Origin: an uncultured Bacteroidales bacterium | Lineage (GTDB): Bacteria > Bacteroidota > Bacteroidia > Bacteroidales > Muribaculaceae | Reading direction: 5' to 3' | DNA length: 64,000 bases | Assembly (NCBI GenBank): GCA_902777835.1 | Contig: CACYVC010000001.1 | Coordinates: 31,736 to 95,735 of the forward strand | Part shown: one piece after another, positions 2,261-64,000 of the stretch | Layout of the letters: each line of letters opens with the position of its first letter | Position numbering within the stretch: position 1 is the stretch's first letter | Notes under the pieces: generated by a model | Told to the model about the DNA's origin: nothing | What the model saw: the letters and a program-made list of their open reading frames with translations, nothing else | Database searches by the model: none | Made by a program: the position numbers and the translations under genes

Positions 2261-2379
2261 TAGTTTTTAGATTTTAGTTCTTTAGTTCTTAGTTTTTAAT
2301 TCTTAGTCATTAGTTTTTTAGTTGTGAGTGGACATGTCGAGTGGACAAGTCAGACAGGTCCGACCAGTCAGTCAATCAA
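2261..2379. repeat. Degenerate 7-nt-period tract (TAGTTTT-type words drifting to GAGTGGA/AGTC words)
   Basis: Read in 7-nt steps from 2261: TAGTTTT TAGATTT TAGTTCT TTAGTTC TTAGTTT TTAATTC TTAGTCA TTAGTTT TTTAGTT GTGAGTG GACATGT CGAGTGG ACAAGTC AGACAGG TCCGACC AGTCAGT CAATCAA. Confidence 0.8.
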
Positions 2380-2559: not shown

Positions 2560-5268
2560 ATGAAAAGAATTTTACTCCTAATGATGGCGATAGCCTCGAT
2601 TGGTATAATTGCCAATGCCGATAACTACGAAATCAACGTTGGTGGTGTGGAAGTCACTACCAGCAACTACAACAATGTGACTGGTGGTGACATCACTGTG
2701 ACCAGTGGATGCAGCAGTGGCTACGTGCGTTTTACCCCAAGCACTAAAACTCTCACGCTCTACAATATCACTATAGAGCGAACAGGAAATAACAATTACG
2801 GTGTACACAATCGTAAATATGACAACCTGACAATAGAGTTTATCGGGATATGCAAGTTAAAACCTAGTAATGCCCCTGGGCTGAAGATTCAGAGGAACAC
2901 TACCGTCAAAATTAGCGGCACACATAATTATACCTATATTTACGGTAACAGTAGTAATAACAAACCGGCAATAGAAGTAGATAATGACAGGACTTTGACA
3001 TTCACTGGTGACAGAGGCACAATGGATGAGAATTGGAACTTGCTAGAAATAAAAGGCGGCGGAAGCAGCTCAACTAATCCAACCATAAAAGGTGGCTCCA
3101 ACATAACATTTAAAGGGAATGCCAACGTCTCGATTGATTGGACAGGTACTGGTAGTAGTGGCTACTGTTTTTATAATCAGAGCCTCACCTTCGATACGGG
3201 ATGTGACGTGGTAATGTATGGAGGTGACCAAGGTGTGATGTACGGTTGCAACAGCACTACCATTAGCGGTTATCTGACAATCATCACCCCATTGCAAGGG
3301 AACAAAATTGGAACATTTAGCTCAGGAGCTATCTGGAACAGCAATGGTCAGCGTGCCAATAGGGCACGTATCACGAATCATCATGTGGCAATTCTCAACT
3401 CTAACTACTTCCCAGACTCAAAATTCCTTGAAGCGATAGATGGCCTAACAGCCCCTGGCTCTAGCGGCTATCTGTTTCATTGGGATGGATGCCTAATGGA
3501 CTATACAGTTCCACTTGTGACTTCTTTGAATATAAGTAATAAAAATATCTCAAACATCTCTGGCATTCAGTACTTCACCGCCCTCACTTCTCTTAATTGT
3601 AGTGGAAATAATATCAGTTCGTTCAACCTATCGGCACTAACAAAACTGATAACGCTAGACTGCCACAGCAACAGTCTCACCACGCTGGGAACACTGCCCA
3701 GTTCACTGCAGACATTAAACTGCTCTTACAACAACTTCTCGGGAACCATATCTTTCACTAATAATAGCACCCTGAAAACTCTGAACTTGAGCAGTAACAC
3801 ACGTTTGACAACGGTGAATGTTTACGGAAACAGTAACTTGACGAGCCTTGATGTTACCGGCTGCTCGGGAATGACCACTCTCAACTGCTACTCAAGCAAG
3901 CTGTCGTCGCTTAACCTGTCGGGATGCTCTTCTCTTGACTACGTCAACGCCTCTAACAACCAGCTCACTTCACTGAGCAACGTGCCAGCATCTTTGCAGT
4001 CGCTGTACTGCTTGACTAACAAGTTCAGCACTTTCTCATTGACTGGTCACAGCAAGTTGAGAAACCTGGATTTAGGCAGCAATGATAACCTCACAACGGT
4101 GAATGTGCAAAACAACAGTGCATTGACCAATCTCTATGTGAATAATTGCTCGGTATTGTCGGTCCTGAAATGTGGCAGCTGCAATATCTCAACGCTTGTT
4201 TTCACCGGGTGCTCATCACTTTATTACCTTGATTGCTCAAACAATAAACTCAGCTCTCTCAATATTTCGGACAACCATGCCCTGAAGAATGTGTATGCCT
4301 ACAACAATCTCATTACTTCGGTACCCACTTTCGGAGTATATAATCAAATCACTCTTGAGGTGTTAAACCTTAGTGGCAATAAGTTCACACAAGTCAATCT
4401 CAATGGCTTTAGCAAGCTTTATAATCTTGCACTTAACGAAAATGCTAACCTCTCTAATGTGGAAGTTAACAACAGTGCTATTACCACGCTTGAGCTTATG
4501 TCCTGCCCTGCTTTGACCACTCTCAAGTGCTATAACGATAAACTTAGTTACATAACTTATTCTTCATCGGCGGTTGATGGACTAAAACTATATGGAACTA
4601 CAGGAATTACATATTTAAGCTGCTATCTGAACCAGTTCACTTCGCTTGATGTGAGCAAACTGACCAACTTGACTTATCTTTATTGCTATAACAATAAGAT
4701 TCAGTCGTTGAATGTGGCAAACAAGACAAAACTGTATGAACTCGAAGTATATAACAACCAGCTCACTTCACTAAATGTGGAAGGGTGCTCGGCATTGAAA
4801 TATCTAGAGTGTTATAACAACTATCTCTCTTCGTTGTCAGTTCAGGGCTGCAACTCGCTCACTTTAATAGATTGTAGTAAGAATCAAATCAAAGAATGGG
4901 GGATGAACACGTTAGTAAATAGTCTGCGCACGATACCGTCGGGCAGTTTAGGCAACTTGAATGTTATCTCAAACTCTAATGAGGGCAACATCATCACCGA
5001 CGCACAGGTAAGGACAGCCCGCAACAAACGCTGGTTCCCTAAGAAATATGTGAGCGGCAGTGGATGGGTTGATATACCCGTCAACACTTCTGTTCCTGGC
5101 GACGTGAACGGCGACGGAACAGTGACTGCCGCCGATATCACCGCCCTATATGATGTGCTGCTTAATAATGACTACAGTCAAATCGTGAACGGCGACCAAA
5201 CTGGTGACGGCATCATCACTGCTGCCGATATCACCGCGGTTTACACCATCATGCTAAGCAGTAAATAG
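2560..5268 (+). CDS. Secreted leucine-rich-repeat protein with a C-terminal dockerin-type module
   Basis: 902-aa ORF with signal peptide MKRILLLMMAIASIGIIANA. It has a ~300-aa N-terminal Gly/Thr/Asn-rich region and ~20 tandem ~22-aa LRRs (LTSLNCSGNNISSFNLSALTKLITLDCHSNSLTTL...). The C-terminus is GDVNGDGTVTAADITALYDVLL...GDQTGDGIITAADITAVYTIML. Confidence 0.85.
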   Translation: MKRILLLMMAIASIGIIANADNYEINVGGVEVTTSNYNNVTGGDITVTSGCSSGYVRFTPSTKTLTLYNITIERTGNNNYGVHNRKYDNLTIEFIGICKLKPSNAPGLKIQRNTTVKISGTHNYTYIYGNSSNNKPAIEVDNDRTLTFTGDRGTMDENWNLLEIKGGGSSSTNPTIKGGSNITFKGNANVSIDWTGTGSSGYCFYNQSLTFDTGCDVVMYGGDQGVMYGCNSTTISGYLTIITPLQGNKIGTFSSGAIWNSNGQRANRARITNHHVAILNSNYFPDSKFLEAIDGLTAPGSSGYLFHWDGCLMDYTVPLVTSLNISNKNISNISGIQYFTALTSLNCSGNNISSFNLSALTKLITLDCHSNSLTTLGTLPSSLQTLNCSYNNFSGTISFTNNSTLKTLNLSSNTRLTTVNVYGNSNLTSLDVTGCSGMTTLNCYSSKLSSLNLSGCSSLDYVNASNNQLTSLSNVPASLQSLYCLTNKFSTFSLTGHSKLRNLDLGSNDNLTTVNVQNNSALTNLYVNNCSVLSVLKCGSCNISTLVFTGCSSLYYLDCSNNKLSSLNISDNHALKNVYAYNNLITSVPTFGVYNQITLEVLNLSGNKFTQVNLNGFSKLYNLALNENANLSNVEVNNSAITTLELMSCPALTTLKCYNDKLSYITYSSSAVDGLKLYGTTGITYLSCYLNQFTSLDVSKLTNLTYLYCYNNKIQSLNVANKTKLYELEVYNNQLTSLNVEGCSALKYLECYNNYLSSLSVQGCNSLTLIDCSKNQIKEWGMNTLVNSLRTIPSGSLGNLNVISNSNEGNIITDAQVRTARNKRWFPKKYVSGSGWVDIPVNTSVPGDVNGDGTVTAADITALYDVLLNNDYSQIVNGDQTGDGIITAADITAVYTIMLSSK
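5092..5265 (+). other. Dockerin type I-like duplicated Ca-binding loop-helix module (last 58 aa of the LRR protein)
   Basis: Two DxNxDGxxxxxD loops (DVNGDGTVTAAD and DQTGDGIITAAD), each followed by an ITA(L/V)Y helix, at the extreme C-terminus. Confidence 0.7.
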
Positions 5269-7945: not shown

Positions 7946-7953
7946 TCAAAAAA

Positions 7954-8065
7954 TAAGTGTTAAGTTTTAAGTTAGCGCCTACGGCGCGTGGAAGGTGGGA
8001 AGTGGAAGGTAGAAAGAGGATTGTGAACGTATTCTCAACTCTTCCCCCTCAACTCATTTCTCTCA
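7954..8065. repeat. 16 phase-locked heptamers filling the exonuclease-coaBC spacer
   Basis: From 7954: TAAGTGT TAAGTTT TAAGTTA GCGCCTA CGGCGCG TGGAAGG TGGGAAG TGGAAGG TAGAAAG AGGATTG TGAACGT ATTCTCA ACTCTTC CCCCTCA ACTCATT TCTCTCA. Confidence 0.8.
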
Positions 8066-8067
8066 CC

Positions 8068-12295: not shown

Positions 12296-13705
12296 GTGGG
12301 AAAGAAGAAAAATTTGCCTCTGCTGGAGGATTTTGAGATAACTGGAGTTGCTGCCGAAGGCAAGAGCCTGGGGCGCTGGAACGACATGGTGGTGTTTGTG
12401 CCTTACGGAGCGCCAGGCGACATTGCTCGTGTGAAAATCACTCGCAAGAAGCACAGTTTTTGTGAGGGCGTGATAGATGAACTCATCAAGCCTAGCGAGG
12501 TGCGCGTGGAGCCTATGTGTCAGCACTTTGGCGTGTGTGGCGGCTGCAAGTGGCAGCACCTTCCTTATGAGTACCAGCTCAAGTGCAAGCAGCAGCAGGT
12601 GGTCGATGCCTTGGAGCGCATTGCCAAAGTGCCGTTGCCCGAAATCTCGCCGATTCTTGGCTCGAAGAAGACTACTTTCTACCGCAACAAGCTCGAGTTC
12701 ACCTTCTCCAATAAATGCTGGCTCACCACTGAGCAGATGCAGAGCGGTGAGGAGTTTCCCAACCGCAACGCCGTGGGTTTCCACATCCCTGGCGGCTTCG
12801 ACAAAGTGCTCAACATCGAGAAATGCTGGCTTCAGGACGACATCAGTAACCAGATTCGCCTATTCCTGCGCGATTACGCTCAGGAGCGTGGCTATACGTT
12901 CTACGACATCCGCAACAATGTGGGCTTTATGCGCATGATGATGTTGCGCACTGCCAGTACTGGCGAGCTGATGCTCGTAGTGGTCTTCAGCGAAGATAAT
13001 CAGGCTGCAATCGACGATGTGATGGGTGCATTGAAAGAGCGTTTTCCTCAGATTACCTCGTTGATGTATGTTGTCAATCTCAAAGTCAACGATTCGCTTG
13101 GAGACCAGGAGTTTGTGCTCTATAGTGGTCGCGACTACATTGAGGAAGAGATGGAAGGGCTTAAGTTCCGCGTGGGTCCAAAATCGTTTTATCAGACCAA
13201 CAGCGAGCAGGCCTACGAACTCTATAAAGTGGCACGCAACTTCGCGGGACTCACAGGCAATGAACTGGTCTATGACCTCTATACTGGTACTGGAACAATC
13301 GCCAACTTCGTCTCTCGTCAAGCGCGTGAGGTGATTGGTATTGAGTATGTTCCCGAAGCGATAGAAGATGCCAAACTCAACTCGCGTGTGAATGGCATTA
13401 CAAACACCAAATTTTATGCTGGCGACATGAAAGACGTGCTCACTGGTGAGTTTGTGGCGCAGCACGGCATCCCCGACGTTATGATCGTTGACCCACCGCG
13501 CGCTGGCATGCACGAGGATGTGGTAAGGGTGATTCTTGATGCTGAACCCGAGCGCATTGTATATGTGAGCTGCAACCCCGCCACCCAAGCCAGAGACATC
13601 GCGATGCTCGACGTGAAGTATCGTGTCGATGCAGTGCAGCCTGTGGATATGTTTCCTCACACACACCATGTGGAAAATGTGGCACTTTTAAGTCGTAAGT
13701 GTTAA
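12296..13705 (+). CDS. rlmD: 23S rRNA (uracil-C5)-methyltransferase, RumA/RlmD type (TRAM domain, 4Fe-4S, SAM MTase)
   Basis: 469 aa with an apparent GTG start. TRAM-like N-terminus, Cys cluster CQHFGVCGGCKWQH, and SAM-binding region LYTGTGTIANF...DPPRAGMH...YVSCNPATQARD. Confidence 0.9.
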   Translation: MGKKKNLPLLEDFEITGVAAEGKSLGRWNDMVVFVPYGAPGDIARVKITRKKHSFCEGVIDELIKPSEVRVEPMCQHFGVCGGCKWQHLPYEYQLKCKQQQVVDALERIAKVPLPEISPILGSKKTTFYRNKLEFTFSNKCWLTTEQMQSGEEFPNRNAVGFHIPGGFDKVLNIEKCWLQDDISNQIRLFLRDYAQERGYTFYDIRNNVGFMRMMMLRTASTGELMLVVVFSEDNQAAIDDVMGALKERFPQITSLMYVVNLKVNDSLGDQEFVLYSGRDYIEEEMEGLKFRVGPKSFYQTNSEQAYELYKVARNFAGLTGNELVYDLYTGTGTIANFVSRQAREVIGIEYVPEAIEDAKLNSRVNGITNTKFYAGDMKDVLTGEFVAQHGIPDVMIVDPPRAGMHEDVVRVILDAEPERIVYVSCNPATQARDIAMLDVKYRVDAVQPVDMFPHTHHVENVALLSRKC

Positions 13706-13830
13706 GTTATAAGTGTTAAGTGTTAAGTTATAAGTGTTAAGTGTTAAGTGGCTGCACCAATTTAAGTCGTGAGTTTTAAGTGTTAAGTGACTGGGTTGAG
13801 ATAAGTTATAAGTATAAATTTATAGTTTTA
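13689..13830. repeat. Two blocks of phase-locked TAAGTGT-type heptamers filling the rlmD-DUF5686 spacer
   Basis: Block 1, from 13689: TAAGTCG TAAGTGT TAAGTTA TAAGTGT TAAGTGT TAAGTTA TAAGTGT TAAGTGT TAAGTGG. An 11-nt break follows. Block 2, from 13763: TAAGTCG TGAGTTT TAAGTGT TAAGTGA CTGGGTT GAGATAA GTTATAA GTATAAA TTTATAG TTTTAAG. The tract begins inside the last rlmD codons. Confidence 0.8.
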
Positions 13831-18917: not shown

Positions 18918-18952
18918 TAGTTTTTAGTTTTTAGTTGTCAGTTGTTAGTTTT
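18918..18952. repeat. Five phase-locked heptamers (TAGTTTT type) directly upstream of the GH31 promoter
   Basis: From 18918: TAGTTTT TAGTTTT TAGTTGT CAGTTGT TAGTTTT. Confidence 0.75.
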
Positions 18953-18987
18953 TTTGTAGTGGCACCCTTTTTTTGTTTGTGACAGAG

Positions 18988-19050
18988 ACGATTTTAAGCG
19001 AAGCGCCCCATGCGCGAAGTCGCCTGACGGCGAGAAATCATTCAAATCGT
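18988..19050. other. GC-rich nested-hairpin element in the GH31/debranching-enzyme divergent region
   Basis: Outer inverted repeat ACGATTT...AAATCGT encloses GCGC-cccat-GCGC and TCGCC-tgac-GGCGA hairpins. It also carries the direct repeat GCGAAGCGCC / GCGAAGTCGCC. Confidence 0.4.
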
Positions 19051-22738: not shown

Positions 22739-24250
22739 ATGAAATCAATCTGTTTCTATTTCCAGATACACCAGCCGTTCCGTCTGAAGACCTATCGCTT
22801 CTTTGACATTGGTAACGACCATTACTACTATGATGACTTCGCCAACGATGACATCATCACACGCATTGCGCAGCGCTCTTATTTGCCTGCCAACCAGATG
22901 CTCCTCGACATGATTAAGGAGAATGGTAAAAAATTCAAAGTGGCGTTCTCAATCAGTGGCACAGCACTTGAGCAGCTCGAGCAGTATGTGCCTGAGTTTA
23001 TCGACTCAATGAAAGACCTTGCCGACACTGGCTGCGTGGAGTTCCTCAGCGAGACCTACGCTCACTCGCTCTCGTCGCTCGTTGATCCTGAGGAGTTCAT
23101 CGCTCAGGTGAAGGCTCACGATGAGAAGATTTATCAACTCTTTGGCCAGAAACCCAAGGTGTTCCGCAACACCGAGTTGATTTATGACGACGACATCGCC
23201 GCTATAGTGGCGTCAATGGGCTTCAAGGGTGCTATCACCGATGGCGCAAAGCACATCTTGGGATGGAAGTCCCCTAATTATCTCTACAAAGCAGCTTCGG
23301 CACCAAAACTGAAACTGCTCCTCAAGAACTCAAAGCTAAGCGACGACATCTCGTTCCGCTTCAGCAACCCCGAGTGGGCTTCTTATCCGTTGACTGCCGA
23401 CAAATACATCAACTGGATTGCCACGCTGCCCGAGGAGGAGATGCTCATCAACCTGTTTATGAACTATGAGACATTCGGCGAGCTGCAACCACGTGAGAGT
23501 GGCATCTTTGAGTTTATGAAGGCGCTGCCACGCTTTGCCGCAGAGCAGGGCATCGAGTTTATGACACCAAGTGAGGTGGTGAGCAAGATGAAGCCTGTGA
23601 GCGAACTCTCGGTAATGCACCCAATCTCGTGGGCCGACGAGGCACGCGACACCAGCGCTTGGATGGGAAATATCTTGCAGGATGAAGCGGTTAACAAACT
23701 CTATTGCCTGAGTGAGAGAATACGTCTCATACAAGACAAGCGTTTGCGTCAAGACTGGAACTACTTGCAGGCTAGTGACCACTTCTACTACATGAGCACC
23801 AAGCACAGCAGCGACGGCTCGGTTCATTCGCACTACAGTCCCTACGATTCTCCATATGCTGCGTTTACTAACTACATGAACGTGCTTAGCGACTTCTTGA
23901 TTCGTGTTAGAGAGCAGTTCCCCGAAGAGATTGAGAACGAAGAGCTTAACGCGTTGCTGCTCACTATCCGCAACCAGGAGAAAGAGATTGAGGAGCTGAA
24001 CCGTGAGGTGGAACTGATGCGCAACAACATCGTTAAGGACACCACTGGCGATTTCGTGCCTAATGTGGAGGAGAAAACGGTAGAGCCAGAGCCTGAACCC
24101 GCTCCAAAGAAGGCTCCAGCCAAGAAACCCGCCGAAAAAAAAGCTCCAGCAAAAAAGACTGCAGCAAAGAAGGCTCCAGCAAAAAAGACCGCTGAGAAGA
24201 AAGACGCTCCAGCTAAGAAACCTGCCGCAAAGAAAACCACAAAGAAGTGA
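22739..24250 (+). CDS. Glycoside hydrolase family 57 alpha-glucan enzyme with a coiled-coil and a Lys/Ala/Pro-rich (histone H1-like) C-terminal tail
   Basis: 503 aa. The N-terminus is MKSICFYFQIHQPFRLKTYRFFDIG...ETYAHSL (GH57 catalytic region). The tail, at 24083-24247, is EPEPEPAPKKAPAKKPAEKKAPAKKTAAKKAPAKKTAEKKDAPAKKPAAKKTTKK. Confidence 0.85.
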   Translation: MKSICFYFQIHQPFRLKTYRFFDIGNDHYYYDDFANDDIITRIAQRSYLPANQMLLDMIKENGKKFKVAFSISGTALEQLEQYVPEFIDSMKDLADTGCVEFLSETYAHSLSSLVDPEEFIAQVKAHDEKIYQLFGQKPKVFRNTELIYDDDIAAIVASMGFKGAITDGAKHILGWKSPNYLYKAASAPKLKLLLKNSKLSDDISFRFSNPEWASYPLTADKYINWIATLPEEEMLINLFMNYETFGELQPRESGIFEFMKALPRFAAEQGIEFMTPSEVVSKMKPVSELSVMHPISWADEARDTSAWMGNILQDEAVNKLYCLSERIRLIQDKRLRQDWNYLQASDHFYYMSTKHSSDGSVHSHYSPYDSPYAAFTNYMNVLSDFLIRVREQFPEEIENEELNALLLTIRNQEKEIEELNREVELMRNNIVKDTTGDFVPNVEEKTVEPEPEPAPKKAPAKKPAEKKAPAKKTAAKKAPAKKTAEKKDAPAKKPAAKKTTKK

Positions 24251-60346: not shown

Positions 60347-60422
60347 AGCTTTTTTGATTATAAGATATATCGTGATATTGCCGTTTTTTTTTAAAATATT
60401 ACGAATGGGGTGGATATTAAAG

Positions 60423-60458
60423 CAAAACCGCATTTTGACTTGGCAAAATGCGGTTTTG
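60423..60458 (-). terminator. Terminator after the PG0541-like gene
   Basis: CAAAACCGCATTTT-gacttggc-AAAATGCGGTTTTG (14-bp perfect stem). Confidence 0.75.
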
Positions 60459-60488
60459 TCTATAATCTATAAGATGTAAATAGAGCTT

Positions 60489-60782
60489 TTATATCGACTT
60501 CTCGATGTTCCAGACAAAGGCTCTCAAGCCCAATTTAGGTGTTGCGAGATCCATCTCGTGAAGTTTCTCGAGAACAGTATCTACACGCTTGTCTTCAACC
60601 ACAGTGAGAATGCCTTGCACGAGCGATGGCCAGGCGTGGGTGCCGTAGTGCGGGTCGCCTGTTGATGAGCCACGTCCCACAACGTCATTGAAGGCTGTGA
60701 ATCCTCGGCATCCACTCTTGTGAAGCATCTCAACGATTCTCTCGTAATAGGCCTGGTCGAAAGATATAAATATTGCTTTCAT
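60489..60782 (-). CDS. PG0541-family transporter-associated P-II-like protein
   Basis: 97 aa. MKAIFISFDQAYYERIVEMLHKSGCRGFTAF...GRGSSTGDPHYGTHAWPSL...LTVVEDKRVDTVLEKLHEMD...GLRAFVWNIEKS. It lies directly downstream of an RND permease, as is usual for this family. Confidence 0.8.
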   Translation of the reverse strand: MKAIFISFDQAYYERIVEMLHKSGCRGFTAFNDVVGRGSSTGDPHYGTHAWPSLVQGILTVVEDKRVDTVLEKLHEMDLATPKLGLRAFVWNIEKSI

Positions 60783-60929
60783 TTTTTCGTTTATCGTTTT
60801 TCGTTTATCGTTTTTCGTTTTTCGTTTATCGTTTTTCGTTTATCGTTTATCGGGGACCGGGGATAGGAGATGCTCTAATCTTTATCCTTAATCCATAATC
60901 CCTAATCCTTAATCATTAATATTAATCCT
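60783..60929. repeat. 21 phase-locked heptamers filling the RND/PG0541-like spacer
   Basis: From 60783: TTTTTCG TTTATCG TTTTTCG TTTATCG TTTTTCG TTTTTCG TTTATCG TTTTTCG TTTATCG TTTATCG GGGACCG GGGATAG GAGATGC TCTAATC TTTATCC TTAATCC ATAATCC CTAATCC TTAATCA TTAATAT TAATCCT. Confidence 0.9.
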
Positions 60930-63900
60930 TAGCGCTTGCCTTCTTGGCTTGTGCCTTGCGCAACTTCTTGCGGTTGCGCTTAATGCCATTGTAAGCAAAG
61001 ATGGTGTACATAGTGGGCACGAAGAGCAGAGTCAGGATTGTAGAGAAGGTGAGACCGCCAATCACGGCAACACCCATTGGTCTCCACATCTCGGCGCCTT
61101 CGCCAGTTCCAACTGCCATTGGCACCATACCAAGGATTGTTGTTAGTGAAGTCATGAGCACAGGACGCAGACGCGATTTGCCACCGTCGATAACTGCTCG
61201 CCTCACACTCATGCCACGCTCGCGGTTGAGGGTGATGTAGTCGATGAGCACGATACCGTTCTTCACCACAATACCGATAAGCATGATGGCTCCAATCATC
61301 GACATGATATTAAGGTTGGTGCCTGTCAAGAGCAGGATGAGTACAATACCCGAGAATGCAAACATGATAGAGCTCATGATGATGCCTGGATAGGTAAACG
61401 ACTCAAACTGCGCCGCCATAACGATGTAAACCAAGATGATGATGAGGATAGCCAAAACTCCCATATCGCCAAATGATTCCTGCTGTTGCTCATAGGAACC
61501 ACTAAGCTCAATGATAACGCCTGGTGGTAGGTCGAGCTTGTCGATTTCGGGTTGAGCGTCGGCAATCACCTCACTCATAGGCCGGTCTTGAACAACAGTA
61601 GATACGGTAATGACACGCTCACGGTCTTTACGTTCAATGGTTGGAGGGGTGAAACGTTCTACCACTTTACCCACCTCCTTGAGTTTGATGCCGTTACCCA
61701 TGGCATTGTAGAGGGTAATGTTCTCAATGTCCTCGAGCGACTGGCGGTGTTCTGGGTCATACATCACCTTGATGTCGTACTCGTCACCGTCCTCACGGAA
61801 GTAACTAGCCGTGTTGCCATTGATACGGTTGCGTATGTAGGTTGCGGCTGTTGAGAGGTTCAGGCCATATAGCGCCAGTTTCTCACGGTCGAAATCCACT
61901 TGGTATTCAGGTTGATAGTCGCTTCGGCTGATGTTGATGTCGGCAGCGCCCTTAACATTTGCTAATAAGCGCTTGAGTTGCTGGGCCACGCTATCGGTCT
62001 TCTCGAAGTCGAAGCCATAGATTTCATAATCGAGAGTTGACTGTCCGCTCATGCCACCACCTCGTTGGCCACCCACATTGACGAGGGCTTTCTTGAGTTC
62101 AGGATAATGCTTGAGGTCTTCACGCATGAGTCCTGCTATCTCGGTGATGCTGCGGTCGCGCTCGCTAGGGTTAACCAGCCTGATGTTCATCGACATGATG
62201 TGTGAGCCATTGCTTTGCATCGATCCCCATGTGTTGTCGCTGCTGGCCTGTCCCACTGTGTAGTTAAATACCTTTATCTCGGGGTATTTCTCGGTCCATT
62301 CCTTGTGAATGCGCTCACACACGTCTTTAGCAACTTCTACACGTGTTCCTATAGGCAGCTCAAGGTTAACACCAAGACGGCTGTTGTCCATAGTTGGGAA
62401 GAACTCGCTACCCACAAATTTCATCAGGAACATTGATGCCACAAACACGCCTAGCACCACAAGCGAAGTGATCCAGCGATGTCGCACACAATGGGTTAGC
62501 AGCCAAGCAAAACCGTCATCGAGTTTGTCAAGTACTTTCTCGATGGGTCCGTAGAATTTAGTGAAGAACTTGCTTTGAGTGCGTTGCAGTCGCAGCATGC
62601 GGCTACACAACATTGGAGTGAGCGACAGCGCTGCGGTGGTAGAGATAATCATCATAATGGTTACCATCCATCCCAACTGACGGAAGAACACACCAGTCAT
62701 ACCAGTGATAAGTGTCAATGGGAAGAACACAGCGATAAGCGTCAAGGTAGATGCTATTACCGAGATTGCCACCTCGTTAGTGCCATGCACCGCCGCCTGC
62801 TTCGGCTCGGCTCCTCGCTCAATGTGTGTCGTGACGTTTTCAAGAACCACAATGGCATCATCGACCACCATACCGATAGAAATTGACAATGCCGATAGCG
62901 ACACGATGTTCAGTGAGTTGCCAGTAGCATAAAGGTAGATGAACGAGGCGATAAGCGAGATTGGAATAGTGAGCACAATGATTACTGTAGCTCTCCATCG
63001 TCCGAGGAAGAAGAATACCACAATTACCACAAACAGCAAAGCATAAAGAACCGTCTCAACAAGAGATGAGATGGTGTTGCGGATGTTGTCGCTGGTATCT
63101 ACGATGTAGTCGAGCTTGATGTCGGCTGGTAGATTCTTCTGGATGTGTGGCAACTGTTTCTGGATCTTGTTAGAAATATCTACTGAGTTGGCTCCACTCT
63201 GCTTCTGAACGATAATCATGGCACCACGCACACCATTGGTGAATGTCTCCTGAGCGCGTTCTTCGAGTGAGTCGTCGATGCGTGCCACATCGCTAAGATG
63301 GATGGCAGCACCATTAGATGCACCTACAACTAAGTTCGCAATCTCTTTAGGATCGTTAAACTCTCCTTCTACACGCAGTGCATAGGTTTCGCTACCGATG
63401 TCAAATGTGCCACCAGGAATGTTTCTGTTCTCAGCACCAATGAGTTGAGCGATTGTTTCAATAGAGAGGTGGTAGCCCTCAAGTTTAAGAGGATCAACAT
63501 AGACGTGAACCTCACGCTTTGGTGCACCGGCGATTGACACCGAGCCCACTCCATCAACACGCGCCAATGCGTTGGCGACATTTTCGTCAAGGATCTTGTA
63601 GAGACCTGGCACACTCTCGTGAGCTTGCGCCGAGAGCAGCACGATAGGAATCATGTCGCTTGAGAACTTGAAGAGGATGGGGGTGTTGGCATCGTCGGGA
63701 AGCATACTCGACACCATGTTTAGTTTATCTCGCACATCATTTGTGAGAACATCGATGTCATAACCATACTCAAACTCAAGAGTAACAATCGAGATATTCT
63801 CCTTAGAATTGGATGTTATGTGCTTGAGGTGCTCTACCGAGTTGAGTGTGTTCTCAAGAGGTCGAGTTACGTTTTGCTCTATATCTTCGGCACTTGCACC

Positions 63901-64000
63901 CGAATAACTGGTCATCACCATGATAGTGTTAGTATCAATGTCGGGCATCAAGTCAATAGGCAATTTCTGAAGTGAAAACAAACCCATGATAACAACCGCC
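60922..64000 (-). CDS. Efflux RND transporter permease subunit (AcrB/CzcA superfamily); N-terminal ~30 aa beyond the window end
   Basis: The frame stays open upstream of the first in-window ATG (63987): ...AVVIMGLFSLQKLPIDLMPDI, which is the end of TM1. It has a 12-TM architecture with two large periplasmic loops; typical segments are GMVVDDAIVVLENV and VLMTSLTTILGMVPMA. Confidence 0.92.
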   Translation of the reverse strand, partial: AVVIMGLFSLQKLPIDLMPDIDTNTIMVMTSYSGASAEDIEQNVTRPLENTLNSVEHLKHITSNSKENISIVTLEFEYGYDIDVLTNDVRDKLNMVSSMLPDDANTPILFKFSSDMIPIVLLSAQAHESVPGLYKILDENVANALARVDGVGSVSIAGAPKREVHVYVDPLKLEGYHLSIETIAQLIGAENRNIPGGTFDIGSETYALRVEGEFNDPKEIANLVVGASNGAAIHLSDVARIDDSLEERAQETFTNGVRGAMIIVQKQSGANSVDISNKIQKQLPHIQKNLPADIKLDYIVDTSDNIRNTISSLVETVLYALLFVVIVVFFFLGRWRATVIIVLTIPISLIASFIYLYATGNSLNIVSLSALSISIGMVVDDAIVVLENVTTHIERGAEPKQAAVHGTNEVAISVIASTLTLIAVFFPLTLITGMTGVFFRQLGWMVTIMMIISTTAALSLTPMLCSRMLRLQRTQSKFFTKFYGPIEKVLDKLDDGFAWLLTHCVRHRWITSLVVLGVFVASMFLMKFVGSEFFPTMDNSRLGVNLELPIGTRVEVAKDVCERIHKEWTEKYPEIKVFNYTVGQASSDNTWGSMQSNGSHIMSMNIRLVNPSERDRSITEIAGLMREDLKHYPELKKALVNVGGQRGGGMSGQSTLDYEIYGFDFEKTDSVAQQLKRLLANVKGAADINISRSDYQPEYQVDFDREKLALYGLNLSTAATYIRNRINGNTASYFREDGDEYDIKVMYDPEHRQSLEDIENITLYNAMGNGIKLKEVGKVVERFTPPTIERKDRERVITVSTVVQDRPMSEVIADAQPEIDKLDLPPGVIIELSGSYEQQQESFGDMGVLAILIIILVYIVMAAQFESFTYPGIIMSSIMFAFSGIVLILLLTGTNLNIMSMIGAIMLIGIVVKNGIVLIDYITLNRERGMSVRRAVIDGGKSRLRPVLMTSLTTILGMVPMAVGTGEGAEMWRPMGVAVIGGLTFSTILTLLFVPTMYTIFAYNGIKRNRKKLRKAQAKKASAKD

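Follow-up and report, generated by a model that had tools for sequence, protein, structure and literature searches.

As later papers summarize the survey of Mrázek et al. 2007 (PNAS 104:8472), heptanucleotides form the most abundant category of long simple sequence repeats (SSRs; units of 5-11 nt) in most prokaryotic genomes, and it was hypothesized there that about 7 nt is the length of the segment that interacts with the DNA polymerase, which would favour slippage (PMC4679880, PMC4692102). Here we analyze a tract of this kind in a 64,000-nucleotide stretch of contig CACYVC010000001.1 (positions 31,736 to 95,735; assembly GCA_902777835.1) from an uncultured member of the Bacteroidales assigned to the Muribaculaceae; this whole stretch is referred to below as the window. 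The tract occupies the spacer between the genes for an AcrB-type RND efflux transporter and a P-II-like protein, and it consists of polymorphic, non-conserved heptanucleotide SSR arrays in a lineage with a strong period-7 excess. It shares with the SSRs of the survey the tandem 7-nt units, the excess of period 7, the intergenic location, the slippage-type variation in length and the lack of a demonstrated function, and differs from them in its host, as those SSRs were reported mainly from Burkholderia, Xanthomonas, cyanobacteria and actinobacteria. The original prediction, drawn from the sequence alone, knew of no described class that would fit; bacterial heptanucleotide SSRs are such a class, and the spacer is a new lineage-level example of it in uncultured rumen Bacteroidales. 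Our literature searches returned nothing specific on heptamer repeats in gut or rumen Bacteroidales, Muribaculaceae-like bacteria, Prevotella or Bacteroides.

Several individual heptanucleotide systems have been described elsewhere. MacGregor 2015 described arrays of TAACTGA that precede start codons by no more than a few nucleotides in Beggiatoaceae, cyanobacteria and five Bacteroidetes (PMC4679880). Gramella, Aequorivita and Elizabethkingia carry long arrays along with other heptamer repeats, and the corresponding spacers of their close relatives are short and repeat-free; both translational roles and binders of the Csp, S1 and CsrA types have been proposed for the TAACTGA arrays (PMC4679880). 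Rehm et al. 2015 reported arrays of GGGAATC and GGGGA(C/T)T from Xanthomonas and Nostoc that are intergenic, transcribed and found in inverted pairs; those of Xanthomonas obey the same strand rule as the arrays analyzed here, vary in length and sequence between close species, and have had no function found for them (PMC4692102). Three tandem heptanucleotide repeats have been described in Calothrix (Mazel 1990, as cited in PMC4692102). In Haemophilus influenzae, (TGAAAGA)n upstream of hmw1A and hmw2A is an experimentally supported, expression-modulating heptanucleotide SSR, and (AACAACC)n precedes a TonB-dependent receptor gene by 13 bp (PMC2651432).

The RND and P-II-like genes of the window are both encoded on the minus strand and are separated by 139 nt (Table 1). 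The RND gene ends with the codons for K-D and its stop (AAG GAT TAA on the sense strand, with the TAA at 60922-60924), at an identical place in the gene calls on identical contigs. From the stop codon the sense strand runs through TATTAA, TGATTAA, GGATTAG, GGATTAT, GGATTAA, GGATAAA and GATTAGAGC, then through ATCTCCT, ATCCCCG and GTCCCCG, and finally through units of ATAAACG or AAAAACG to AAAAA and the ATG of the P-II-like gene. Three segments can be distinguished: a stop-proximal array of GGATTAN units, whose first unit is formed by the last two RND codons and the stop, and which is rich in G, A and T and poor in C on the sense strand; a C-rich middle of degenerate heptamers; and a start-proximal array of CGATAAA and CGAAAAA units (together CGAWAAA). 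The stop-proximal array has undergone two 1-nt phase slips, one giving a 6-nt unit (TATTAA) and the other a G-less unit (GATTAG), as seen from the phases modulo 7 of GGAT (4,3,3,3,3) and GATTA (5,4,4,4,4,3). The CG ends of the units in the C-rich middle are in phase with the downstream array (CCCCG phases 0,0), and the CGAWAAA array with the two preceding CCCCG units holds a single strict phase over about 12 units; the start-proximal array additionally displays a 21-nt super-period (93% matches in Tandem Repeats Finder, TRF). This tandem iteration is beyond chance, with 10.0 and 8.3 TRF copies and none in Markov shuffles. Likewise, a sliding period scan of the whole window recovered tracts at period 7 and its multiples only, with 0 expected from Markov shuffles.

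The original prediction had read positions 60783-60929 as 21 heptamers in an unbroken register with a gradually drifting word. Stepping along the plus strand in units of 7 nt from 60783 indeed returns exactly those words, including ten TTTTTCG or TTTATCG words (five of each), and the coordinates bear out the overlap of the end words with the RND stop and final codons. The further claim that no indel interrupts the register over 147 nt does not hold in view of the two slips, which the last word itself betrays (TAATCCT versus TTAATCC). The spacer is almost entirely, though not strictly only, period-7 material as had been supposed. The drift at a fixed period, thought to be unlike slippage, resolves into three juxtaposed arrays of different words with whole-unit changes and re-amplified point mutations. 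We concur that the tract is not a CRISPR, a repetitive extragenic palindromic (REP) sequence or a miniature inverted-repeat transposable element (MITE); with respect to CRISPR, the units are 7 nt long and contiguous and have no spacers between them, as against repeats of about 23-50 nt with unique spacers.

Comparison of strains, which had been suggested as a check, revealed that the number of units is variable. An identical 97-aa P-II-like protein is encoded on ten contigs from independent rumen metagenomes and metagenome-assembled genomes (MAGs), and among these the CGAWAAA array has ten (the window type), seven or five units, with flanking single-nucleotide polymorphisms (SNPs) that co-vary. 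A close relative (L015) has seven CGAWAAA units with a different order of T and A variants, and an L015-like relative (L095) has eight. Thus, arrays of 5, 7, 8 and 10 units, differing by whole units, are found beside an identical or near-identical gene, and the tract is therefore a polymorphic SSR, with alleles such as would arise from multi-unit slippage and re-amplified point mutations. The stop-proximal array is 53 nt long in the allele of the window, as compared to 40 nt in other alleles, including the seven-unit one; this difference of 13 nt is not a multiple of 7.

To place the spacer in the context of its lineage, species-representative genomes were scanned, yielding 80 loci (L011-L090) from MAGs of ruminant and gut Bacteroidales, mostly labelled Muribaculaceae. 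TRF analysis of the window together with these loci (1.38 Mb) recovered 45 arrays of period 7, compared with 1 of period 5, 4 of period 6, 9 of period 8, 18 of period 9, 7 of period 10 and 6 of period 11, and an independent autocorrelation scan of the 80 loci (1.3 Mb) gave 31 arrays of period 7 against at most 6 for any other period. The period-7 scan called for by the original prediction thus revealed a specific enrichment in both the window and its relatives. By a crude gene call (about 90% coding and 10% non-coding DNA), 43 of the 45 arrays fall between genes, and of the two that do not, one is the orthologous spacer itself; hence period 7 is over-represented in non-coding DNA, in the manner of heptanucleotide SSRs. 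Bumps in the autocorrelation of intergenic DNA appear at lags of 7, 14 and 21 for the window and its close relatives, but not for distant relatives. A signal pervading all intergenic DNA was considered and rejected: the lag-7 bump nearly vanishes once the discrete arrays are masked, and the signal therefore comes from these arrays, which in the window have a density of about one per 11 kb. The 45 arrays comprise at least 26 different canonical words. Some recur at unlinked loci and across species (TTAAGTG seven times, ATTATGC six times), and a word of the ACGAWAA type stands directly ahead of several start codons at unlinked loci and in different species.

The P-II-like family (1355 homologues) is conserved across the Bacteroidales, in Muribaculaceae-labelled MAGs, and its gene usually begins about 20 nt past the RND gene. 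We identified 66 RND-to-P-II junctions with both gene ends recognizable, at 52 of which there is no periodic array; period-7 arrays occupy 11, and arrays of period 6 and period 9 occupy two and one, respectively. The spacer has a median length of 93 nt where a period-7 array is present versus 20 nt where it is not. At the array-bearing junctions we observed at least ten unrelated word sets, namely CGAWAAA with GGATTAN, CTAAACA with TAGTTTT-like words, GGTTTAA, TAAYAGT, GATAARA, TTAGGAA with ACCTAAA, ATTRTGC, GTTTTCA with CTGAAAA, ACTRAAG and ACTARRA-like words, and the L014 and L017 junctions have an additional sub-threshold TAAACGA set. Arrays are often absent even in close relatives whose P-II-like protein is 90-98% identical. 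Accordingly, the conservation across orthologous spacers for which the original prediction had wished to look is not found: most orthologous spacers have no array, and where one occurs it is the period that recurs and not the word.

At the L014 and L017 junctions, a period-8 array (GCTAACAA/GCTGACAA) begins within the final RND codons and continues into the spacer; it is complementary to a downstream GTCAGCTTGTTAGC, with which it forms a hairpin, and a short TAAACGA heptamer array and the ATG follow. In two other relatives, arrays of the ACGAWAA/CAACGAA type (L011:5549-5591 and L012:5436-5476) lie 1-5 nt before a gene that is located some 4.5 kb upstream of the one for the P-II-like protein and probably encodes the membrane-fusion component of the same efflux operon. 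One word family would in this way mark two junctions of one operon in different species.

The period-7 arrays also display regularities of position and strand. They tend to have their beginning at a stop codon, or no more than a few nucleotides away from one, or else to have their end similarly close to a start codon. On the sense strand, stop-proximal arrays (n=15) contain 33% A, 5% C, 27% G and 35% T, as compared to 35% A, 20.5% C, 17% G and 28% T in ordinary trailers (n=575), and start-proximal arrays (n=10) contain 50% A, 18% C, 12% G and 19% T, as compared to 39% A, 19% C, 12.5% G and 30% T in ordinary leaders (n=629). In certain spacers the arrays at the two ends are complementary, e.g. 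(TTAAGTG)n with (CACTTAA)n and (GTTTTCA)4 with (CTGAAAA)4, and the roughly equal unit numbers of the two arms suggest co-expansion or selection for pairing (Table 1). The RND-to-P-II spacer of L069 likewise has a hairpin of complementary arrays, and in that of L072 the paired arrays are hexamers (TTGGCN with NGCCAA).

In the target spacer, a hairpin of this array-pair type is present only in weak form. In the minimum free energy fold, GGGAUU/GGAU of the upstream array pairs with AUCC/GGUCCC of the C-rich middle (about -15 kcal/mol), and the final ~80 nt ahead of the AUG, with the whole start-proximal array, are predicted to be unpaired. A significant RNA structure was rejected for this spacer, since its stability is no better than that of shuffles (z of 0 to +1), and the hairpin is not retained in L015. 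With E-values up to 1 allowed, no Rfam 15 covariance model matched either strand of 60400-61100. A scan that does not model Bacteroidetes promoters detected neither a sigma-70-type promoter nor a terminator in the spacer, and no Bacteroidetes -7 box (TAnnTTTG) was seen on reading it by eye. Given this and the shared strand, the RND and P-II-like genes are likely to be co-transcribed, in agreement with the operon setting assumed by the original prediction. The sole terminator-like hairpin found lies 3' of the P-II-like gene and likely marks the end of the transcription unit. Two further ideas were set aside. A 'three-frame stop trap', wherein period 7 together with a stop triplet in the unit would place stops in all frames, was dropped because base composition explains the stop-triplet content (13 of 15 versus 11.4 expected, and 8 of 10 versus 5.1 expected, p=0.04); and planar bending of the DNA is not expected, by reasoning alone, as A-tracts at 7-bp intervals do not keep phase with the helical repeat.

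Table 1. Features of the window (plain coordinates) and spacer-spanning hairpins of related loci (coordinates prefixed by locus)
Feature	Location	Strand	Basis and remarks
AcrB-type RND efflux transporter gene	60922..63987	-	Pfam ACR_tran E=1e-255, open reading frame (ORF) list; N-terminus near window edge
Stop-proximal heptamer array (GGATTAN), about 7-8 units	60876..60931	-	TRF period 7, 8.3 copies, 80% matches, 5% indels
C-rich middle: GAGC and three degenerate heptamers (ATCTCCT, ATCCCCG, GTCCCCG)	60853..60875	-	phase analysis, fold
Start-proximal heptamer array (CGATAAA/CGAAAAA) x10, abutting the P-II-like ATG	60783..60852	-	TRF period 7, 10.0 copies, 88% matches, 0% indels
P-II-like gene, 97 aa, downstream cistron	60489..60782	-	Pfam P-II E=7.8e-8
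Terminator-like hairpin, 15-bp stem, 3' of P-II-like gene	60423..60458	-	terminator scan
(AAAACTA)~9 array at GH2 gene (ATG ~2225)	2261..2323	-	TRF, Pfam GH2; ends 5 nt upstream of -7 box TACCTTTG
Three-part operon spacer, RNase T-like exonuclease to coaBC	7946..8067	-	fold -31.8 kcal/mol, z=-2.06
(TTAAGTG)9 array	13688..13750	+	TRF; G-rich, C-poor on sense strand
(AAAACTA)5 array at GH31 gene (ATG ~18880)	18918..18953	-	TRF; ends 5 nt upstream of -7 box TAACTTTG
Spacer-spanning hairpin, L017 adk spacer	L017:13400-13549		-49.5 kcal/mol, z=-7.9
Spacer-spanning hairpin, L012	L012:11685-11825		z=-4.8
Spacer-spanning hairpin, L054	L054:1905-2054		z=-3.65
Spacer-spanning hairpin, L012 RND junction			z=-2.7
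Spacer-spanning hairpin, L013			z=-2.6

Period-7 tracts elsewhere in the window, of which the original prediction had counted four, were recovered by TRF at 2261-2323, 7954-7973, 13688-13750 and 18918-18953. The (TTAAGTG)9 array contains the stop codon (TAA at 13703-13705) of a gene for a TrmA/RlmD-like methyltransferase (12296..13705, plus strand; Pfam PF05958 E=2e-20), and the same word is found at the adk stop codon in L012 and L017. A 269-aa ORF on the opposite strand (12860..13669) was rejected as the neighbour of this array: it has no Pfam match and no record in the protein collection and is probably spurious, the methyltransferase on the plus strand being the real gene. The coaBC spacer, too, consists for the most part of period-7/14 material: it has G-rich words of this period after the stop codon, complementary C-rich heptamers of the ACCTTCC type with which these form a hairpin, and (AACTTAA)3 beside the ATG; its gene-to-gene spacing is identical in all contigs retrieved. 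It also includes a small GC hairpin (GCGCC TAC GGCGC), and similar GCGCC...GGCGC elements are present at about 18990-19035 and in L035. The promoter layouts of the GH2 and GH31 genes are nearly alike, each with a Bacteroidetes -7 box 22-24 nt before the ATG and the array in place of a -33 element, and (AAAACTA)n could be a shared upstream element or operator of these genes. In addition, the coding region 22739..24250 (plus strand) ends in a Lys/Ala/Pro-rich low-complexity tail with a period-15/30/60 repeat (24096-24247), which is in frame, of an ordinary coding type and without relation to the heptamers. At 2560-5268 is encoded a 902-aa protein with leucine-rich repeats and a C-terminal type I dockerin domain, a combination that is, to our knowledge, unusual for Bacteroidales and typical of the cellulosome-associated proteins of rumen Firmicutes.

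Set against the individual systems described before, the arrays show partial resemblances. They are akin to the TAACTGA arrays in the forward orientation near start codons, in the genes without Shine-Dalgarno sites and in having repeat-free relatives, but many words are used here, CGAWAAA and GGATTAN among them in the target, in place of the one word that dominates genome-wide in Beggiatoaceae. NAACTGA units do occur directly before a start codon at L012:1330-1391; the target is likewise 0 nt from its ATG, but AACTGANAACTGA was found only in L012 and L014 and is absent from the window, which places the target outside the TAACTGA network. With the arrays of Xanthomonas and Nostoc they share the period of 7, the intergenic location, their probable transcription, several recurring words per genome, inverted pairs and a length and sequence that differ among closely related species, and GGGATTA units, as well as GGGGAT/GGGGAC units in reverse, are even present in the target spacer. 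Those arrays, however, belong to another phylum and form G-quadruplexes through runs of three to four G, whereas here the words are mostly AT-rich and have G runs in numbers too small for quadruplexes. The Calothrix heptanucleotide repeats are known under the label STRR. The target does not belong to this cyanobacterial group, in that its host is a member of the Bacteroidales, at least 26 words are in use and the three published STRR words were not seen in the listed arrays; the recurring word families (TTAAGTG, ATTATGC) are a resemblance only. As in the Haemophilus SSRs, 7-nt units with a strain-variable number lie between a promoter or upstream gene and a start codon, and this position and polymorphism would be compatible with SSR-modulated expression of a phase-variable contingency locus. 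The Haemophilus repeats, however, have a measured effect on expression and lie at surface or virulence contingency loci of a host-adapted pathogen, whereas the array neighbours here are housekeeping or mixed genes (P-II-like, RND pump, TrmA-like methyltransferase, adk, coaBC, GH2 and GH31) with no association with surface, virulence or restriction-modification functions. REP sequences and bacterial interspersed mosaic elements resemble the arrays in occupying transcribed operon spacers, and the complementary arrays of several relatives similarly form long hairpins after stop codons; unlike them, the arrays have no conserved palindromic unit, their stems are built of tandem heptamers, and the main array of the target is unpaired. 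Finally, the target does not look like an omega-type heptad operator, as it lies inside an operon, had no sigma-70-type promoter or TAnnTTTG found in it and uses words that differ among loci; the sole hint in that direction comes from the two (AAAACTA)n arrays at the GH promoters.

In light of the above, we consider it fairly probable that the spacer is composed of heptanucleotide SSRs that slippage has generated and local constraints have filtered, the A-rich unpaired array being a leader without a Shine-Dalgarno site. In this scenario, arrays would be born in a normally plain spacer of about 20 nt, replication slippage would add or remove one to several units at a time, and point mutations within units would be re-amplified to give the mixture of CGATAAA and CGAAAAA and the 21-nt super-period. 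The preference for 7 nt might then be a property of the replication and repair machinery, as conjectured by Mrázek. Selection would act mainly as a filter on the words and strands tolerated in a transcribed operon spacer, and the surviving words would be G-rich and C-poor after the stop, and A-rich, G-poor and unpaired before the start, like ordinary Bacteroidales leaders lacking Shine-Dalgarno sites. Given this resemblance, (CGAWAAA)n may provide the P-II-like gene with its unstructured leader, and at the least it is compatible with initiation there. As the array is periodic, changes in unit number leave the 30-odd nucleotides beside the AUG unaltered, and the polymorphism of 5-10 units is therefore probably near neutral. 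Several observations nevertheless weigh against this reading: 1) the junction is a hot spot, as TRF arrays are called at 10 of 81 junctions but, among the remaining intergenic regions, at 23 of 857 (odds ratio 5.1, p=2.4e-4), which could reflect selection rather than mere tolerance; 2) stop-proximal arrays are far more C-depleted than ordinary trailers, with G exceeding C in 12 of 12 non-tied arrays; 3) identical words recur at unlinked loci and in different species; 4) in several spacers a G/U-rich post-stop array and a complementary A/C-rich pre-start array combine into long hairpins (z to -7.9). A purely mutational model predicts none of these, and its polymerase-based explanation of the number 7 is itself a published conjecture.

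These four observations keep alive the alternative that the spacer is a selected cis-acting RNA module for an operon junction lacking a Shine-Dalgarno site, whose unit number would tune expression as in Haemophilus hmw or the AGAT repeats in the 5' untranslated region of Moraxella uspA2. The G/U-rich post-stop array with its C-rich partner would form a hairpin insulating or stabilizing the upstream cistron, and the long A-rich unpaired array would provide a landing pad for the ribosome (via S1), uncoupling and setting the translation of the P-II-like gene. We regard this as possible, albeit not as the account to be expected. It would explain the repeated independent acquisition of arrays at one junction, with at least ten word sets at the above odds ratio, the predicted unpaired state of an array abutting the ATG, the asymmetry between stop- and start-proximal arrays, the same three-part layout in the second spacer of the window (7946-8067) and the spacer-spanning hairpins of relatives. 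It can also draw on the precedents of expression-modulating heptanucleotide SSRs (PMC2651432) and the translational proposals for TAACTGA arrays. On the other hand, a plain spacer of about 20 nt suffices at most orthologous junctions, including those of relatives with a 90-98% identical P-II-like protein; the hairpin of the target does not exceed shuffled sequences in stability and is not preserved in L015; the sequence beside the AUG is unaltered by unit changes; and the associated genes are housekeeping or mixed, with no bias towards surface antigens. The stronger proposal, that heptamer arrays constitute a selected class of modular operon spacers in Bacteroidales lacking Shine-Dalgarno sites, recruited repeatedly and independently at certain junctions, RND-to-P-II among them, as tunable hairpins and landing pads and owing their period to an RNA-binding factor with a 7-nt footprint and not to the polymerase, appears to us rather improbable. 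In such spacers a G/U-rich array would begin at the stop codon, and either a complementary A/C-rich array or an unpaired A-rich one would end at the following start codon. A protein that sets the period also underlies the view of the arrays as platforms for a 7-nt-footprint binder, be it a cold-shock-domain, S1 or RRM protein on RNA or an omega-repressor-like cooperative binder on DNA. CspB binds heptanucleotides and omega binds heptads. The fixed period, the word families recurring at many loci, the (AAAACTA)n arrays ending 5 nt from the -7 box at two GH promoters and the binders of the Csp, S1 and CsrA types proposed for TAACTGA arrays are all in line with such a binder. We nonetheless think it unlikely in the face of at least 26 canonical words in 45 arrays and unrelated words in orthologous spacers; no candidate binder was identified, and the excess of period 7 in phylogenetically scattered bacteria argues for a more general cause.

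Dispersal of the arrays by a mobile or copy-paste process, i.e. a miniature element or gene conversion, in place of birth in situ, could account for the recurrence of TTAAGTG/CACTTAA, ATTATGC and ACGAWAA in different species and at loci that are not orthologous; the inverted array pairs, too, are reminiscent of terminal inverted repeats. Yet the arrays are without conserved flanks, target-site duplications or a fixed element length, no associated transposase was found, and they differ by whole units, the one stop-proximal 13-nt difference apart. Moreover, it is the terminal codons and stop of the RND gene itself (AAG GAT TAA) that supply the first unit of the target array, and this speaks for seeding in situ. 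Such dispersal thus strikes us as very unlikely. An artefact of metagenome assembly or sequencing has to be weighed for a lineage known only from metagenome-assembled contigs; it is hardly credible for a spacer recovered in more than 10 independent assemblies and samples, with discrete alleles that co-vary with flanking SNPs and arrays of at most 70 nt, below the read and k-mer lengths used.

As it stands, the spacer is an ordinary example of a known repeat class. The reason why bacteria favour intergenic tandem repeats of 7 nt has been a low-profile question since the cyanobacterial repeats of 1990 and the survey of 2007, and the window adds an abundant gut and rumen lineage to the carriers of heptanucleotide repeats. 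It also brings forward three regularities not obviously expected under a purely mutational model, namely the strand rule, the hairpins of complementary arrays and a junction that has acquired arrays of at least ten unrelated word sets. If cultivable Muribaculaceae or Bacteroides share the trait, alleles with 0, 5, 7, 8 and 10 units would offer a series for studying effects on translation in bacteria that initiate independently of the Shine-Dalgarno sequence.

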